Shown: positions 40,268-48,979 of the stretch, piece after piece
Layout: each line of letters begins with the position of its first letter
How positions within the stretch are numbered: position 1 is the first letter of the stretch
Program-made: the position numbers and the translations under genes
DNA from: Escherichia coli
GTDB lineage: Bacteria; Pseudomonadota; Gammaproteobacteria; Enterobacterales; Enterobacteriaceae
DNA: 64,000 nucleotides
Assembly: GCF_024700885.2 (NCBI RefSeq)
Contig: NZ_CP117016.1
Strand: one strand, 5' to 3'
Notes under the pieces: model-generated
Databases searched by the model: none
Told to the model about the DNA's origin: nothing
Seen by the model: the letters and a program-made list of their open reading frames with translations, nothing else

Positions 40268-40708
40268 TTACTTAATAACAGTAACCACAGCCACAAGCAC
40301 GGCCATCGCAGACAGGACAATACCTGTGAGTAACCAAGTCTGATTTGCAAATGATTTCTGAAGTTCAGTACGATGCTCAGCCATCTCAACTTTCAGAGAC
40401 TGGCGTAAATCAGCCATCTCAGACTTCAGGGATTGGCGAGATTCTGCCATCTCAAGCCTCAACCCTTCGCGAATCTCCAGTACATCAGATTTGGTAGCAA
40501 AGGATTCGCTTCTTGTGGTGAGAGTAATCAGGTTGTTTTTGATTTCAGTCACATCACTTTCCAGGCAACTGACCCGCCGTTCAAGGTCGTCATTCATGCC
40601 ATCACCTCCATCATTACCACTTCCTGTTACTTGGTTGTTGGATACATTATAGGCATTCTCTTTCTTTTTTCTGAACCGCGAAATATGTGCAACATTCTCT
40701 GCCATCAC
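40268..40708 (-). CDS. hypothetical tail-anchored coiled-coil membrane protein (prophage cargo)
   Basis: 146 aa; three 11-residue repeats (EMAESRQSLKS / EMADLRQSLKV / EMAEHRTELQK) and a single C-terminal TM helix (WLLTGIVLSAMAVLVAVVTVIK); start overlaps the stop of the upstream gene (ATGA). No family recognised. Confidence 0.55.
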   Translation of the reverse strand: MMAENVAHISRFRKKKENAYNVSNNQVTGSGNDGGDGMNDDLERRVSCLESDVTEIKNNLITLTTRSESFATKSDVLEIREGLRLEMAESRQSLKSEMADLRQSLKVEMAEHRTELQKSFANQTWLLTGIVLSAMAVLVAVVTVIK

Positions 40709-41067
40709 TTCTCATCACCCTGCTTGCCTACCCAGTTCATAAAGGCCCGGGCCGAGTAACGATGAACAAACCCACATCTGTTACAGGTAAGTCGGAATTC
40801 ATAGTTATGGATATTTTCCCGATCATGTCCCTCATATCCCGGATACCCAGTAAATGGACCGATGTAATCAAGCATAACAAAAGTGCCTAAATCACACTCC
40901 TCAGCAGTTTTCGGCTCAGGCCCCACCTCAACAATATTCGTCAAATACATGTACATATCCGTATCGCCACACGACAAACATTTTTCATTCGTAGACGACT
41001 CATTGAGAAAACGCGCAAAATTATCGAGCGTTGCCATTCTTTTAAGCTCATCTAAATGAAACTTCAC
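40705..41067 (-). CDS. hypothetical Cys-motif protein (possible zinc ribbon), prophage cargo
   Basis: 120 aa with CLSC and CNRC pairs; begins 3 nt after the integrase stop. No family recognised. Confidence 0.55.
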   Translation of the reverse strand: MKFHLDELKRMATLDNFARFLNESSTNEKCLSCGDTDMYMYLTNIVEVGPEPKTAEECDLGTFVMLDYIGPFTGYPGYEGHDRENIHNYEFRLTCNRCGFVHRYSARAFMNWVGKQGDEK

Positions 41068-41069
41068 TC

Positions 41070-42047
41070 TTAAGCACCTCCTAGTGGATTAAACCTCACC
41101 GCATCCTGCAGGTAATCCGGCGCAAGATGGGCATAAATCATCGTTGTCTGAATCTTTGCGTGCCCCAGAATTTTCTGGAGCGTGAGAATATTGCCACCGT
41201 TCATCATGAAATGACTGGCGAAGGTGTGGCGCAGCGCATGAACAGCCTGGCCGTCAGGAACATCAGGTGCGACCGTTTTGATGACATCGCGAACCAATGA
41301 ATAATCCAGCGTCGGAAACACCAGTTTCCCGCCCCGTTTTTTGATCTTTTCAAACAGGCTTTCAGAAATAGGAACGGTACGGTTTTTGCTGTTCTTCGTT
41401 TTTGAAAAAGTGATTCGACAATGAAGAACACGGCGCTGCTCCAGTACCGCTACCTCGCCCCATCGCGCCCCGGTCGACAGAAGGATTTCGACAGCCAGCC
41501 GTTCATCGGGATTTTCAGCCAGTGCATCCAGCAACTGAACACATTCAGACTTACTCAGATATCCCATTTCGCGCTCGTTAACCTTCATTCCTTTAAGGCC
41601 TTGAACGGGGTTATCGTTAAGAAAATGGCCGGATGAGATGAGTGCGGTAAACATCGCGCTTAACGCCCCAATCTCTCGATTTATGGTGCTGGGCTGTATC
41701 CCCTGCTCTATCCTGGACACACGTAGCTCGGTGAGCATCGTTGTATTAAGTCTATGCACGCACGGGTCATCCATTGCCTCACTCAAGCGCAGCAATTTAA
41801 GGCGCGTGTTATGCCCTGACTTCATTAGCTGGCCGTGGTATTTCCACCACAAGTCAATAAGCACTGACAGAGGACGGCGATCAATAGAGTTTCCTTTCCA
41901 CTCATTGTTATGCTGTTGCGCCAGCACCCACCGCTCATATAAAACTGCATCCGATTTCGTTTTAAATTTTTTGCGAATGCGTTTGCCTTTACGCCCCTCA
42001 GGGCGCATGTCAAGAAGATACCCTCCCGGAATTGATTTTATGCTCAT
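41070..42047 (-). CDS. int: P2-type tyrosine integrase
   Basis: From MSIKSIPGGY, about 45-50% identical by eye to recalled P2 Int (RPTGRNGKRIRRKF..., LSTGARWGEA, HALRH.F, LGH...TM.YAH). ORF-track start trimmed by 50 codons. Confidence 0.85.
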   Translation of the reverse strand: MSIKSIPGGYLLDMRPEGRKGKRIRKKFKTKSDAVLYERWVLAQQHNNEWKGNSIDRRPLSVLIDLWWKYHGQLMKSGHNTRLKLLRLSEAMDDPCVHRLNTTMLTELRVSRIEQGIQPSTINREIGALSAMFTALISSGHFLNDNPVQGLKGMKVNEREMGYLSKSECVQLLDALAENPDERLAVEILLSTGARWGEVAVLEQRRVLHCRITFSKTKNSKNRTVPISESLFEKIKKRGGKLVFPTLDYSLVRDVIKTVAPDVPDGQAVHALRHTFASHFMMNGGNILTLQKILGHAKIQTTMIYAHLAPDYLQDAVRFNPLGGA

Positions 42048-42096
42048 TCGTGAAACCCCAGCGTTACAAGACCACCATGCCCCCAGCGTTCCATGA

Positions 42097-42405
42097 TTAG
42101 CCGGGCTGTGTACCAGTCTTGCGGGGCTTTTGAGAAGACGATGTGTTTTCTGGCCCATCAGGGGAGAGAGAGGGACTGATCTGCCCAGCAGCCTCATTCG
42201 TTTTTCCTGTCATAAGCCAATTCATGTACTTAAAAAAGCGAGGGTGATTAACAATCTTGATAAGCACTTCGCCCCCTATGTTTTCAATCCGCCCCGTTTC
42301 ATAACGACGCAAAGTGCCGATAGGCACATCAATCAGGCCGCAAAATTCTTCGCGCGTTAAATCCTCTGATTCACGAATCACTCTAATTTTTTCACCGATA
42401 AGCAT
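42097..42405 (-). CDS. P2 C-type immunity repressor
   Basis: 102 aa from MLIGEKIRVIRESEDLTREEF; resembles recalled P2 C (…SEKIVLMRKSEYLSRQQL…QTPQFTKYTLWFMT…) in sequence and position upstream of int. Confidence 0.75.
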   Translation of the reverse strand: MLIGEKIRVIRESEDLTREEFCGLIDVPIGTLRRYETGRIENIGGEVLIKIVNHPRFFKYMNWLMTGKTNEAAGQISPSLSPDGPENTSSSQKPRKTGTQPG

Positions 42406-42444
42406 TGACAGTGTTCCTATAAGTACACTAAGCTTGCGCACAAG

Positions 42445-42462
42445 GTGTACTTATAAGTACAC
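42445..42462. promoter_or_regulatory. operator-like perfect palindrome GTGTACTTATAAGTACAC in the C/cox switch region
   Basis: 18-bp perfect palindrome between divergent repressor and early operon; TATAAGTACAC recurs as a direct repeat at 42418-42428. Confidence 0.55.
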
Positions 42463-42501
42463 CAAGTCACAAACAACCACAGATAGCGCAGGTTATCACA
42501 C

Positions 42502-42780
42502 ATGGCAAAAGTCCTGAACACACACGAACAGGCAGACTTTGAGCGTTTAGCAGCGTTCTATCCCTACCGCGATGAGCATGGGTTACCAGTACTTGAAGAA
42601 AGCCTGAAAGATTACGCAAAGCGTACCAACCAAGCTGTTAACACAGTGAAAAGACAGGCTGACAGAGGTTCAATTCCCATCAACCAAGATGAAAAGAACT
42701 CAAGACGCACAGTAAATCTTTTCGCTCTTTTCCTGAAAACAATCAGGAGCGCAGAGAAATACGTGCAGATGACAAAATAA
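42502..42780 (+). CDS. first early-operon gene (Cox/Apl position; putative excisionase/regulator)
   Basis: 92 aa in the position of P2 cox; sequence similarity to P2 Cox not evident, so function is by position only. Confidence 0.45.
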   Translation: MAKVLNTHEQADFERLAAFYPYRDEHGLPVLEESLKDYAKRTNQAVNTVKRQADRGSIPINQDEKNSRRTVNLFALFLKTIRSAEKYVQMTK

Positions 42781-42794
42781 CGAGGTGTCATTTT

Positions 42795-43133
42795 ATGCTG
42801 AAGCAACGCCGTAATTTTCGTACCGGAACAGAACGCCACGCTAACCATTTCGCTACCAACGCATCACGCAGCAACATCCGCTACAGCCTGAGCGAGACGC
42901 ACGCAACACCTGATGGCCACACAGTAAAACAAATTGGCGAACACACCTGGCTAATTGAAAAAGCTGGAATCGTGGTTCACAGATGCCCACGCAATCCGTT
43001 TACCGGAAACCGCATTTTTGCACTAAGCAGCGGCGACAATCAGTTCGGACAGGATTTCACATTGTACGAAGCACTTCGCACGGTTGATCGTCTGCTTCGC
43101 GGGCAAAGTTTTATTAAACAGACTGATTTATAA
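42795..43133 (+). CDS. hypothetical phage early protein
   Basis: 112-aa ORF in the early operon. Confidence 0.5.
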   Translation: MLKQRRNFRTGTERHANHFATNASRSNIRYSLSETHATPDGHTVKQIGEHTWLIEKAGIVVHRCPRNPFTGNRIFALSSGDNQFGQDFTLYEALRTVDRLLRGQSFIKQTDL

Positions 43134-43143
43134 CAGGTGCGTT

Positions 43144-43422
43144 ATGACCAAAGAGCATGCACAAGGTGTATTTATCCGTTTTATTGATTTTCGCGGTGAA
43201 CTGTTATTGCGCGCATCAGCTATTGATGGAGTTGTCCCATCAGAAAAAAATGCAGCTACTTACGTTTATCTGAACGGCACGCGCCTGACCGTAGAACTTC
43301 CGTACCAGACTGTACACGGAATCATTAGCGAAGCTGAAAAAGCGCGCCAGGCTAATGGCAATGAACCCTATATCGAAATTATTTGCATGGATTCAGAAGC
43401 TGAAATCCAGAAAGCAGATTAA
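43144..43422 (+). CDS. hypothetical phage early protein
   Basis: 92-aa ORF from MTKEHAQGVF, tightly spaced in the operon. Confidence 0.5.
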   Translation: MTKEHAQGVFIRFIDFRGELLLRASAIDGVVPSEKNAATYVYLNGTRLTVELPYQTVHGIISEAEKARQANGNEPYIEIICMDSEAEIQKAD

Positions 43423-44400: not shown

Positions 44401-44790
44401 ATGATTGACGCTCATGACTTCACAAGATGGGTGCGCACACAGGACACCCGTCTGGCTCCCATTCTTCGGGGATTATTTGATCTCTACATTCGTGGTCGTG
44501 ACAACAGAGCACGCACCACAAAACCGGAGAATGTGGATACCCTTTATTTCACAGTAGACGACTGCTACCGCGTGGACTTCACACCACACGGACTGGCGTT
44601 GCACTGCCTGACACCGCACGGCGAATCACTGCTGGCGTATTACGACTCCCCGGCCTCCGTATTTGCGGCAATGCTGGCGCATCGCACTGCTGGCGGGTGT
44701 GCCTCGCTGAGTGAATACACCGCTGAGTTTAACCGCCTTTCCGCCCTCTTCTCGCAGGAGTGGCAGCGCGTGACGGGATACCAGCCATGA
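44401..44790 (+). CDS. hypothetical phage early protein (P2 B-gene position)
   Basis: 129-aa ORF immediately upstream of and overlapping the A gene start. Confidence 0.5.
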   Translation: MIDAHDFTRWVRTQDTRLAPILRGLFDLYIRGRDNRARTTKPENVDTLYFTVDDCYRVDFTPHGLALHCLTPHGESLLAYYDSPASVFAAMLAHRTAGGCASLSEYTAEFNRLSALFSQEWQRVTGYQP

Positions 44791-47627
44791 GTGAGTTTGC
44801 ATGGAGCTGGAATGAACCACGGCCAGCCATTGATCCGGCCAGATTTACGGAGCGCAGGCAGGAAACTGAAACCGACCTGCAACGCGCCATCCGTTACTAC
44901 CTTGAGGCAGACAAAAAGGCCCAAGAAGAACAGGAAGCGAAAGAGGAAGCCTTTTTCGCACAATCCGCCATGGGTAAAAAACTCATGGCATCCCTTGAGG
45001 AAGCCGGACAGCGTGAAAAGCTGGCACAAAGCATCATCAGTAAGCGCCGGGCAACAGAACAAGACCCGGTGGCCCGTGCCTTTGCCACACTGAAGGTGCT
45101 TCCCGTTTATCTGCGAGAACCCCTGAGCCGCCACCTCTCTTTCCTGCGCAAAAAACAGGAAGCCGATCGCCGGAAAGGCAAAAAGAGCTGGCAGGCGGAA
45201 CGCTATGCACGCGGAACCCTGCGCAAAATATTCGAACGTCTGGATCGCACTGACGGACGCTGGCTGACACAGGGTTATCGCTCCATTGCCGGACGCGAAC
45301 GCCTGGACGATTTGCTTTACCTGCCGCAGCTCAACAAACACCAGGTACAGACACTGGCCACCATGACGGCAGCAATGTTCAGTAGCACATTCGAAAAACT
45401 CTGCGATGGCTTTGGCGCGACCGATGGTGAGCTGACCATGGATGTAACGCTGAAGGCGTATCAGATGCTGGCCCGCATGGCGTTACATCTGCACGCCATG
45501 CCTCCACATTATGACGCACTGACAACAGATAGAGATCGGAGGAACGAACCGGACACAGAGCTGCTGCCAGGCGCAATCCTTCGCCTGACCTGTGCTGAAT
45601 GGTGGAAACGCAAACTGTGGCTATTACGTTGCGAGTGGAGAGAAGAACAACTCCGCGCCGCCTGTCTGGTTTCCAGAAAAACATCGCCCTATCTGAGCCA
45701 GGACGCGTTAAGCGAGTTTCGCGCACAGCGCGAGAAAACACGCGATTTCCTGAAAGGTTTCATGCTGGAAAACGAAGACGGGTTCACGATTGATCTCGAG
45801 ACAGTGTATTACGCGGGAGTAAGTAACCCGGTTCACCGTAAGGCAGAAATGATGGCCACCATGAAGGGGCTGGAACTTCTGGCCGAGGCCCGTGGTGACA
45901 AAGCGGTGTTTCTGACTGTCACCTGCCCGTCAAAATACCACGCCACAACAGAGAACGGTCATCCGAATCCCAAATGGAACGGGGCCACCATGCGCGACTC
46001 CAGCGATTACCTGGTTAACACGTTTTTTGCGGCGGTCCGCAAAAAACTGAACCGCGACGGTCTGCGCTGGTATGGCATCCGCACGGTGGAGCCTCACCAT
46101 GACGGCACCGTGCACTGGCATATGATGGTCTTTGCTCATCCGGAAGAAATCGACAGCATCGTGGCCATCACCCGCGATATTGCCATTCAGGAAGACCGCC
46201 ACGAGCTGGGCAATGATATTACTCCGCGCTTTAAGGTGGAGTATGTCGACGGCTCAAAAGGCACACCAACCAGCTATATCGCGACCTACATCGGAAAAAA
46301 CCTGGACAGCCGCGCCGTGGATGGCATCGACCCGAAAACGGGCAAACCACGCGTTGACCACGAAACAGGTAAATCAATGGCCGAGAGCGTGGAGCGCGCC
46401 ATCGGCTGGGCGCGCCTTCACCGGGTCCGCCAGTTCCAGTTCTTTGGCATCCCCTCCCGTCAGGTGTGGCGTGAACTGCGCCGCCTTGCCAGCCAGATGG
46501 CACGCAACCCGGAAGGCCCGCAACGGCTGAAGGATGACGCAATGGATGCGGTACTCGCTGCCGCTGATGCCGGGTGTTTTGCCTCCTACATTGAAAAACA
46601 GGGTGGCGTACTTGTTCCACGCAAGGACTACCTGATTCGCACCGCCTACGACCTCGCAGATGAGCTGAACGATTACGGCGAACAGAGCGTACAGATTTAC
46701 GGGATCTGGTCACCACTCATCGGGGAATCCTCCCGTGTGTGCACGCACCCGGATAACTGGAAGCTGGTAAGACGTAAACCGGAAGCGGAAGACAGCACCC
46801 GCGAAAATGATTTTGACCTTCAGGGCGGCCCTGCCGCCCCTTGGACTCGTGGCAATAACTGTCCCCGTGTACAGGAAACAGACAACAACGGGACAGAACA
46901 GCCGGAAGAACGGCCAGCACCGTGGCCGCAGCTCCCTGACGGCGTTGAAGTGAACGAATGGATGCATTCACTGAAACGGCACGAACGCCGGGCGCTGATG
47001 CGTTCGCTTCGTGACAAACAGGCAAAAAACAGCAGCGATGAAATGCAGAACTGGACACAGAGCCGCAAACAGCCACAGCCTTTACCTGATAACCACGAGT
47101 TACTCGCTAAAGAATGGCGGGAGTCTGCTGAATCTCTCGGCCTGCATATTGGTGAACAGCAGATGCAGCACCTGTTACGGGGCGGCAGTCTGTACGTTGA
47201 CGGCAGCATCATTGCACCGCAGGGATTTGAAATTGTACGCAAACCGGATACCCGCCCGGACAGCCGAATCACGCAGCTCTGGCAACGCCTGAGCCGTAAT
47301 CACGGCGTAAGCAGCACGGAGATCCGCCATAACCCGGTCGCCAGCTATCTGGAACAGCTGGGGGCATCAGACCCTGAAGCCGCCGCACGCCTGGCATCCA
47401 CACTTCAGCAAGACCAGAACACCATGAAAACCCCCGTTACCGTGCTTTCTGACATGCTGCGCGCCATCCGTGACGCAGAGCACGCACAGAGAATCAGTGA
47501 AACCACTGAACGCGCCCACCGCAAAGCAGACCTGCTGCGGGGTAGCCTGACCAGTGGAAACAAAAAACAGACAGAAACGGGACTCACAAATCCCGTAAAT
47601 GAGCAAAAAACGTGCCGCGATATATGA
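44787..47627 (+). CDS. P2 gpA-type rolling-circle replication initiator with long C-terminal extension
   Basis: 946 aa from MSEFAWSWNEP; HUH-type motif VHWHMMVFAH and downstream Tyr-containing region (YIATYIGKN) typical of P2/186 A proteins; last 200 aa or so is low-complexity. Confidence 0.8.
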   Translation: MSEFAWSWNEPRPAIDPARFTERRQETETDLQRAIRYYLEADKKAQEEQEAKEEAFFAQSAMGKKLMASLEEAGQREKLAQSIISKRRATEQDPVARAFATLKVLPVYLREPLSRHLSFLRKKQEADRRKGKKSWQAERYARGTLRKIFERLDRTDGRWLTQGYRSIAGRERLDDLLYLPQLNKHQVQTLATMTAAMFSSTFEKLCDGFGATDGELTMDVTLKAYQMLARMALHLHAMPPHYDALTTDRDRRNEPDTELLPGAILRLTCAEWWKRKLWLLRCEWREEQLRAACLVSRKTSPYLSQDALSEFRAQREKTRDFLKGFMLENEDGFTIDLETVYYAGVSNPVHRKAEMMATMKGLELLAEARGDKAVFLTVTCPSKYHATTENGHPNPKWNGATMRDSSDYLVNTFFAAVRKKLNRDGLRWYGIRTVEPHHDGTVHWHMMVFAHPEEIDSIVAITRDIAIQEDRHELGNDITPRFKVEYVDGSKGTPTSYIATYIGKNLDSRAVDGIDPKTGKPRVDHETGKSMAESVERAIGWARLHRVRQFQFFGIPSRQVWRELRRLASQMARNPEGPQRLKDDAMDAVLAAADAGCFASYIEKQGGVLVPRKDYLIRTAYDLADELNDYGEQSVQIYGIWSPLIGESSRVCTHPDNWKLVRRKPEAEDSTRENDFDLQGGPAAPWTRGNNCPRVQETDNNGTEQPEERPAPWPQLPDGVEVNEWMHSLKRHERRALMRSLRDKQAKNSSDEMQNWTQSRKQPQPLPDNHELLAKEWRESAESLGLHIGEQQMQHLLRGGSLYVDGSIIAPQGFEIVRKPDTRPDSRITQLWQRLSRNHGVSSTEIRHNPVASYLEQLGASDPEAAARLASTLQQDQNTMKTPVTVLSDMLRAIRDAEHAQRISETTERAHRKADLLRGSLTSGNKKQTETGLTNPVNEQKTCRDI

Positions 47628-47703: not shown

Positions 47704-48663
47704 ATGAAAATTTGTATCGACGACGGCTCCACCAACATCAAGCTGGCATGGACTGAGAACGGCGAACGCCGCAACGCCATCAGCCCGAACAGCTTCAAGT
47801 CGGAATGGTCTGCGCCGTTCGGTGGCACGCAGCCCGCGAACTACATGCTTGATGGCGTGCGCTATGGTTTTGATCCGGTCAGCGATCGCTTTATCCAGAC
47901 GACCGACACACAATACCAGTACAGCGATGTGAATGTCATTGCCATTCATCACGCGCTGGTCAAATCAGGCATCACGCCACAGGAGGTGGATGTGGTTGTC
48001 ACCCTGCCACTGAGCGAGTATTTCGACACAAACGCACAGCCGGACATGGCCAACATCAACCGCAAAAAAGCAAACGTTATGCGCCCGGTGGAATACCAGA
48101 ACGGCGAAGCATTCACTATCCGTAATGTACGGGTTATGCCTGAATCCATTCCGGCTGGCTTTAAAGCACTGGCTGACATGAGTCCGTTTGAATCCCTGCT
48201 GATTGTGGATTTAGGTGGAACCACGCTGGATGTGGCAAAGGTTCAGGGACAACTGGCAGGTATCAGCCAGGTGTTTTGCGATCCACACGTAGGCGTTTCC
48301 CTGATGGCCGATGCAGTACTGTCGGTGATGGCCACTAACGGTATGCGTACCAGTCACCACATCGCCAATACCATTATCGAACATCGCCATGATGAAGCCT
48401 GGCTGCGCCAGCACATCCACAATGACGCGCATTACGCCAGCCTGATGGCGGTTATTCGTGAAAAGGAAGAAACACTGAAACAACGCGTGATCCGCGCGCT
48501 GGCGGGTTTTTCGGGTTACGGGCGGGTGATGGTTGTCGGTGGCGGGGCGGAGATTGTGGCACCCGCTATCCGCGAAGCCTGCGGAGTTAATGCGACTTTC
48601 ATCGCGGACGGGGTGCCACAGTTTGCTCTGGTTAATGGGCTGTACGCAATGGACAAGGAGTAA
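47704..48663 (+). CDS. ParM/StbA-like actin-type ATPase
   Basis: 319 aa; actin-fold motifs IDDGSTNIKL (phosphate 1), DLGGTTLDV (phosphate 2), VVGGGAE (adenosine); collinear over full length with recalled plasmid R1 ParM (MLVFIDDGSTNIKLQW…YSDVNVVAVHHALL…VMPESIPAGY…DLGGTTLD…GGGAEL). Confidence 0.8.
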   Translation: MKICIDDGSTNIKLAWTENGERRNAISPNSFKSEWSAPFGGTQPANYMLDGVRYGFDPVSDRFIQTTDTQYQYSDVNVIAIHHALVKSGITPQEVDVVVTLPLSEYFDTNAQPDMANINRKKANVMRPVEYQNGEAFTIRNVRVMPESIPAGFKALADMSPFESLLIVDLGGTTLDVAKVQGQLAGISQVFCDPHVGVSLMADAVLSVMATNGMRTSHHIANTIIEHRHDEAWLRQHIHNDAHYASLMAVIREKEETLKQRVIRALAGFSGYGRVMVVGGGAEIVAPAIREACGVNATFIADGVPQFALVNGLYAMDKE

Positions 48664-48667
48664 ACCA

Positions 48668-48979
48668 ATGACGACACCAACCAGGCGGATAAGTTTCTAT
48701 CTGAAGCCTGCGGCCGTCAAGAACGAAAGCGAAGCATGCGCCTGGCTGGACAGCCTTACACCGGAAGCCCGCAAAAGCGGCCAACGCGTGGCTTTTCTGG
48801 CCGGGCTGGCACTTCTGAAAATGAATCCGGCAGAGGCTTACCGACTGGCTGCATGGGCTGACGATGAGGCGTTATCAGTGACACAAACCAGGACAGAACG
48901 CCCCCTGTCACAGCCAGTACCAACCGCACAGATAACCAGTCAGATGGCCGGAAATATCAGGGCGTTATTTCCTGAATAA
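48668..48979 (+). CDS. ParR-like DNA-binding adaptor
   Basis: 103 aa from MTTPTRRISFYLKPAA...; N-terminus resembles recalled R1 ParR (RRTIAFKLNPDV…LDSIP.GERS…AALTAGLALY); starts 5 nt after the parM-like stop. Confidence 0.65.
   Translation: MTTPTRRISFYLKPAAVKNESEACAWLDSLTPEARKSGQRVAFLAGLALLKMNPAEAYRLAAWADDEALSVTQTRTERPLSQPVPTAQITSQMAGNIRALFPE

Follow-up and report, generated by a model that had tools for sequence, protein, structure and literature searches.

Genes and sites of the C-cox region

The window, that is the whole stretch of 64,000 nucleotides of Escherichia coli DNA analysed here, carries a P2-family prophage which adjoins btuC on the chromosome, and its interval 42000-42900 is 100% identical to E. 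coli strain E-1246 and others. As listed in Table 1, a leftward gene for a C-type immunity repressor and a rightward cox-like gene are separated by a spacer of 96 bp (42406-42501), so that the repeats described below do lie between the repressor and the early operon, where an earlier note on this DNA had placed them. The integrase gene, downstream of C, is presumably in the same leftward operon. Rightward of the cox-like gene we found DUF4761 and DUF4754 proteins, small ORFs and a GPA-type replication protein, and, further right, P2-type portal, terminase, capsid, lysis and tail genes. The phage was assigned to the P2 type because it shows the order int <- C / cox -> ... -> A together with P2-type capsid, portal and terminase genes. 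The repressor matched Pfam HTH_3/HTH_31 and phrog_147 (E=5e-31), and it aligned with the P2 C structure (2XCJ/2L49) with E=7e-16 over residues 3-98, which is essentially its full length. It is 47% identical to the C proteins of L-413C and of KC618326 (a record labelled 'Escherichia phage P2'), 38% identical to C of WPhi and 38-61% identical to other C proteins, its best matches among isolated phages being SEN4/SEN5 and phiT5282H at 53% identity. The 92-aa product of the cox-like gene matched phrog_575 'Cox-like excisionase and repressor' with E=1e-7 over residues 34-84 only; it gave no Pfam match and no BLASTP similarity to WPhi Cox.

Table 1. Position of the genes and predicted sites of the immunity region in the window.
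Feature	Position	Strand	Sequence	Remarks
Tyrosine integrase gene	41070-42047	-		Pfam Int_N and Phage_integrase; RefSeq annotation
C-type immunity repressor gene, 102 aa	42097-42405	-		helix-turn-helix domain and conserved C-terminal tail; same ORF in RefSeq
Immunity cassette	42220-42470			C DNA-binding/dimerisation part, O1 and O2; from sliding identity to L002 and L004
Predicted Pe -35	42405-42410	+	TTGACA	overlaps last base of C start codon; 9.9 bits
O1	42411-42428		GTGTTCCTATAAGTACAC	imperfect 18-bp dyad, 16/18; spans whole Pe spacer exactly
Putative Shine-Dalgarno of C	42414-42418	-	AGGAA	8 nt before ATG, within O1 left arm; read from the sequence
Predicted Pe -10	42429-42434	+	TAAGCT	18 bp past -35
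O2	42444-42463		GGTGTACTTATAAGTACACC	20-bp perfect palindrome; 18-bp core GTGTACTTATAAGTACAC at 42445-42462
Candidate Pc, weak	42480-42508	-		-35 TTGCCA 42503-42508 (overlaps cox ATG), 17 bp, -10 TATCTG 42480-42485
cox-like first early gene, 92 aa	42502-42780	+		phrog_11533 and phrog_575 matches

Some genes outside the spacer also deserve mention. The ORF of the GPA-type replication endonuclease (44760-47627) encodes about 946-955 aa, of which the Pfam GPA domain covers residues 194-518 only, and it therefore has long extra N- and C-terminal regions. Just 3' of it, within 47704-48975, the RefSeq annotation of the identical E-1246 region gives a ParM-like segregation ATPase (47704-48663) and a 'plasmid partitioning/stability' protein, an unusual cargo for an integrated P2-type prophage. 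On the other side, at the end of the prophage between the integrase gene and btuC (40268-41067), lie two genes (146 and 120 aa; PHROGs 9415 and 4293) whose counterparts vary by prophage, with other ORFs in the prophages L004 and L005, and which may be cargo genes.

With the start codons in lower case, the spacer has the order cat TGACA GTGTTCCTATAAGTACAC TAAGCT TGCGCACAAG GTGTACTTATAAGTACAC CAAGTCACAAACAACCACAGATAGCGCAGGTTATCACAC atg. The 18-bp perfect palindrome claimed in the earlier note was found as described, and it extends by one further base pair on each side to 20 bp. The second copy reported 34 bp away is likewise present, as TATAAGTACAC occurs at 42418-42428 and again at 42452-42462 (34 bp start to start), but the picture of one palindrome accompanied by half a copy had to be given up, for the upstream copy is itself a dyad. 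In full the direct repeat comprises 22 nt, 42411-42432 against 42445-42466, with an identity of 19/22. When the 133-nt region was shuffled, a palindrome with 10-bp arms was obtained in 0/300 shuffles and an 11-nt direct repeat had p=0.003, which excludes a chance origin of palindrome and repeat. Searched as an 18-mer at three mismatches or fewer, O1 and O2 were the sole occurrences in the 64 kb (expected 0.01), and thus no distal operator copies of the kind known for 186 CI were found within the 64 kb at this threshold; the 11-mer at two mismatches or fewer was not enriched (13 seen, 8.5 expected). The mismatches of O1 lie in its left arm (42411-42419), where TTCC stands for TACT and corresponds to the reverse complement of AGGAA. 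O1 is probably imperfect because this arm doubles as the likely ribosome-binding site of C, and it appears to have a dual function, as operator and in translation of the repressor.

Promoters were sought with a purpose-written weight-matrix scan, for which the annotated P2 Pe (TTGACA-17-TAGTAT) and the P2 Pc -10 served as controls, and both were recovered. On the + strand the scan ranked TTGACA-18-TAAGCT first. The same -35 stands at the C start in WPhi, in P2 and in three related E. coli prophages, L002 (O104:H4 2011C-3493), L003 (JP538) and L004 (O157:H7 Z885). A simple consensus promoter/terminator scan of 42000-42900 returned nothing, and it missed the Pe -10 because only 3/6 bases of this hexamer match the consensus. 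O2 would fall at about +5 to +22 on the predicted Pe transcript. On the - strand the best score, 7.1 bits, went to the candidate Pc near the cox start; it is comparable to what the scan gave for the annotated P2 Pc, and hexamers stand at the Pc positions in L002 and L004 as well. Pe is well predicted; for Pc the prediction is weak and the position uncertain. The divergent layout described earlier holds for the genes; the promoters, by analogy with P2, most likely lie face to face. The predicted transcription starts are at about 42441 for Pe (rightward) and about 42473 for Pc (leftward). Should Pc be real, its transcript and that of Pe would have about 33 nt in common, and O2, which lies in this stretch, would be transcribed from both sides.

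Cassette exchange and the C-upstream regions of the family

In the prophages L002, L003 and L004 the integrase and Cox are shared with the window, as are the tail at the C terminus of C and the right-hand third of the spacer; all three depart from the window in about 65 N-terminal residues of C and in the other two thirds of the spacer, on the left. Measured against L002 and L004, the DNA is 97-100% identical as far as about 42200, 40-70% in 42220-42470 and 73-100% beyond, the divergent block stopping just past O2. At least three different cassettes of about 250 bp (1620-1870 in L002, 1620-1875 in L004) are carried by near-identical E. coli prophages. L002 has dyads at the same positions as the window, TGGTGGTCTCCAGACGACTA between the two promoter elements and, 32-33 bp further downstream, AGTCGCCTATAGACGACT, a dyad of 8/9; the cassette of L004 has weak dyads (7/9) and lacks a strong direct repeat. 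As the repeats are replaced along with the helix-turn-helix domain of the repressor and with nothing else, these swaps favour the earlier proposal that the operator sequence sets the immunity specificity of the prophage. They also offer ready-made matched sets, each of a DNA-binding domain and both operators, for tests of specificity. The right third of the spacer (42467-42500), which is conserved across the heteroimmune cassettes, contains YCACA at 42467, 42477 and 42496; these copies, 10 and 19 bp apart, are candidate Cox boxes.

The cassette region was present at 98% identity or more in 114 of 5,426 complete E. coli genomes, E2348/69 and O157:H7 strains included, and other E. coli genomes matched the region in two pieces only. 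Among six homoimmune copies, residues 1-85 of C were invariant and O1/O2 were kept but for one base in one strain, too little variation to be informative. This sole operator variant, in STEC388 (L094, position 412, equal to window 42458), has C for T in the O2 right arm and so reads TAAGCACAC, which resembles the half-site CAAGCACCC of a Serratia relative (L010). A remnant of the same prophage is found in E. coli MEI7BO1-21 (L006, 1501-2130), where integrase, repressor and operators are kept, cox and the entire early region are deleted, and what is kept runs straight into a truncated tail-fibre gene; it is a grounded prophage that might still confer immunity. No phage with the immunity region of the window was found in 50,697 phage records, either by megablast of 42000-42900 or by sensitive blastn of 42200-42480, and the sole match, of 64 bp, fell within DUF4761 of Xuanwuvirus P884B11.

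We compared the DNA upstream of C across the family. One genome per species was scanned with an alignment of C proteins, and this yielded 80 loci, which together with reference phages made 81 non-redundant upstream regions. TTGA(C/A)N stands at the place of the Pe -35 in 66/81 relatives, and 50/66 of these have TAnnnT 17 or 18 bp past it; aligned on the -35, the family shows the pattern -35, 18-bp O1, -10, about 8-11 bp and 18-bp O2. Palindromes were indeed found in related immunity regions: an exact one with arms of at least 7 nt, starting 25-50 nt from the C start, occurs in 18/81 (shuffle mean 0.57, maximum 3), an enrichment of about 30-fold at the O2 position, and further from the C start in only 3/81 (expected 1.4). 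In 15/18 of the palindrome loci a degenerate full-length copy lies 19-34 bp nearer C (p<0.05), and exact direct repeats of at least 8 nt with a spacing of 19-36 bp occur in 30/81 (expected 0.74). Given 18 exact palindromes where 0.57 were expected, the paired-site design is common in the family. In KC618326, for example, TGGAACCTATATAGGTTCCA is perfect over 20 bp and has a copy 34 bp upstream. For P2 and WPhi the same shuffle analysis gave significant direct repeats and palindromes that were not significant. As a separate observation, in two loci (L061 and L071, at about 1380-1500 of each, upstream of C) the downstream site repeats the upstream one as its reverse complement, the sites of L061 being TGGTCCTTAGTTAATGAC and GGTCATCAAGTCAGGACT, 33 bp apart, so that direct, inverted and palindromic arrangements all occur in the family.

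Furthermore, the sites co-vary with the recognition helix of the repressor. The helix GTLRRYETGR of the window pairs with the half-site TAAGTACAC, GTLKRYETNR (L010) with TGAGTACCC and GSIKRYETGR (L035) with TTAGTACCC, while GTQKYYETGR pairs with TCTCTACCA in both L013 and T5282H; SEN5, which has the latter helix too, carries TTTCTACCA in O1 and TCTCTACCA in O2. Thus, among the closest relatives, related helices go with related half-sites, of the (A/G)GTAC and the CTACC types.

The proposed switch and its alternatives

We consider it likely that this P2-family (Peduoviridae) prophage has its lysis/lysogeny switch in the spacer, where C dimers on O1 and O2 would shut Pe. That the palindrome belongs to a C-repressor operator, as had been suggested, is supported by the homology of the genes, the WPhi-like geometry and the cassette swaps. 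In the proposed scheme Pe reads rightward into cox, and C would be a small symmetric dimer like P2 C, of which one binds to each 18-bp dyad. The dimer on O1 would occupy the gap between -35 and -10, and that on O2 would cover the first 20 or so transcribed bases. The two dimers, 34 bp or about three helical turns apart, would bind cooperatively and shut Pe, whereby lysogeny would be maintained along with immunity to superinfection, and the sequence of the dyad, read by the third helix of the repressor, would set the immunity class. O2 would further make a clean symmetric operator, of modest extra value in a repressor family whose repeats have been described as asymmetric, and a good DNA target for a co-crystal.

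[quoted passage not shown] Such a model has been published for P2 C (PMC2995052, PMC4752584), and P2 and WPhi, with their significant direct repeats and no significant palindrome, fit it; in addition, direct repeats occur in more of the relatives than exact palindromes do (30 against 18). Nevertheless we regard it as unlikely for the prophage in the window. A perfect 20-bp palindrome never arose in the shuffles, O1 is a dyad too, with two mismatches for which the ribosome-binding site of C accounts, palindromes are strongly enriched at the O2 position across the family, and L002 has dyads at both sites. The repressor, moreover, is a symmetric dimer of a palindrome-binding kind (PMC2995052). 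By analogy with the studied phages, the dyad could still prove dispensable and the 11-bp direct repeat alone could matter.

It is also conceivable that the palindrome acts in RNA, as a 5' hairpin of the early or the antisense lysogenic transcript with a part in stability or interference, and is not a protein site. The RNA of 42438-42510 is predicted to form an 8-bp stem on the palindrome (-18.1 kcal/mol, z = -3.9), and transcripts from both promoters are predicted to include O2. However, any palindrome folds in this manner, no U-run follows this one, no terminator was found in 42000-42900 by the consensus scan, and an Rfam search of 41900-43200 returned no family, only a chance miRNA-like match below threshold. 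[quoted passage not shown] We therefore think it very improbable that a hairpin accounts for the palindrome, although one could have a role beside the operator function.

That the repeats are sites for the Cox-like protein, the lytic repressor and excisionase, and not for C is equally far-fetched: Cox and Apl do bind between both promoters of P2-type switches (PMC3936717, PMC7498355), which is where these repeats lie, but binding of Cox to them is unlikely because Cox is 81-87% identical in the heteroimmune prophages L002 and L004, whose repeats differ wholly and were swapped with the helix-turn-helix domain of C, and the known sites of Cox and Apl are direct repeats, short and spaced by about one helical turn (PMC7498355), not 18-bp dyads 34 bp apart; the conserved stretch 42467-42500 with its YCACA motifs is the better candidate for Cox.

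Returning to C dimers on dyads as the preferred reading, one may ask how far it extends. Possibly, though we put this forward tentatively and with slightly more doubt than belief, the whole C-repressor family reads a dyad of about 18 bp with one symmetric dimer at each, and the repeats of P2 and WPhi are halves of degenerate dyads. If true, this would resolve the puzzle of a symmetric dimer on an asymmetric site, and the present prophage, with a perfect and a near-perfect dyad in the geometry of WPhi, would be a clean natural case and an obvious substrate for a co-structure.

Comparison with known switches

The operators published for C repressors consist of two direct repeats, of 8 bp spaced by 22 bp in P2, 8 bp by 26 bp in P2 Hy dis and 10 bp by 34 bp in WPhi (PMC1904268), and all seven immunity classes seem to use direct repeats (PMC2995052). 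The operators of P2, WPhi and P2 Hy dis are described as non-palindromic, with one monomer per dimer reading the repeat (PMC2995052), and that a symmetric dimer should bind there has been called surprising or puzzling, the site being asymmetric (PMC2995052, PMC4752584). The window likewise has two putative operator sites that flank a predicted Pe element beside the C start, and their distance of 34 bp lies within the range of 22-34 bp. Its sites are, on the other hand, not non-palindromic direct repeats, O2 being a perfect palindrome and O1 a 16/18 dyad.

The closest experimentally studied geometry is that of WPhi (class III), where the half-sites were defined by experiment as 10 bp, 34 bp apart centre to centre and flanking the -10 (PMC1904268). 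Its repressor shares the 38% identity given above, its -35 TTGACA also abuts the C start codon, and in both systems the first repeat, which lies inside the promoter spacer, begins 13 nt from the C start codon, a second one following 34 bp on, past the -10, the repeats being 10 nt in WPhi and 11 nt in the window. The half-sites differ, however (TATTGGTGAC in WPhi, TATAAGTACAC in the window), as does the spacer, which is 152 bp in WPhi and 96 bp in the window; O2 of WPhi has no dyad and its O1 only a 7/9 dyad, and the Cox proteins have no detectable similarity. P2 (class I; 2XCJ) resembles the window in its homologous small dimeric repressor (E=7e-16), in a -35 that overlaps the C start and probably in the orientation of Pc and Pe, which face each other in P2 (NC_001895 annotation). 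In the comparison with P2 operators which the earlier note had called for, the two copies flank the Pe -10 in both systems, but the P2 repeats are 8 bp (GTTTAGAT), lie 22 bp apart and lack dyad symmetry. The closest sequenced phages, SEN4/SEN5 of Salmonella and phiT5282H of Enterobacter, share the layout with TTGACG, an 18-bp O1 (GGGTAGGGATCTCTACCA in phiT5282H, GGGTAGGGATTTCTACCA in SEN5), TAACAT and an O2 33 bp downstream of O1; they differ in a half-site of the CTACCA type and in an O2 that is a weaker dyad (5/9), and no description of their operators was found in the literature searched.

The 434 and P22 c2 repressors are functional analogues, being helix-turn-helix dimers on palindromic operators, and P2 C, a symmetric dimer, resembles these palindrome binders and superposes on P22 c2 with an RMSD of 1.9 A (PMC2995052). 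A further resemblance of P2 C is to C.Esp1396I, two dimers of which occupy two repeated palindromes (PMC2995052). Unlike lambdoid repressors, that of the window has no RecA-cleavable C-terminal domain and only two sites, which no second repressor shares, and its promoters probably face each other. A switch of the 186 type (CI/Apl/CII), the other comparison suggested earlier, was rejected: that type has a two-domain CI of about 190 aa, a cII gene and inverted-repeat operators with distal sites, whereas the window has a single-domain repressor of 102 aa, DUF4761/DUF4754 proteins after cox and no distal operator copy within the 64 kb at three mismatches or fewer. Class IX, represented by PhiECO5 of UTI89, was rejected as well, its C protein and spacer both being different; the spacer of PhiECO5 also holds a palindrome, TTCTTCACC-ACAT-GGTGAAGAA.

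For the locus itself the outcome is a routine annotation, in which operator, early promoter and immunity determinant are identified for a type of E. coli prophage that is common and unstudied. Judged from sequence comparison with P2 (class I), WPhi (class III) and class IX, the element appears ordinary in kind and new in immunity specificity. A modest but real wider point is that symmetric sites are frequent at the O2 position in a family described as using direct repeats. We place the element among the P2-type switches because it fits them in every tested respect except asymmetry, and operator asymmetry has been described for three studied phages but is not required of P2-type switches.
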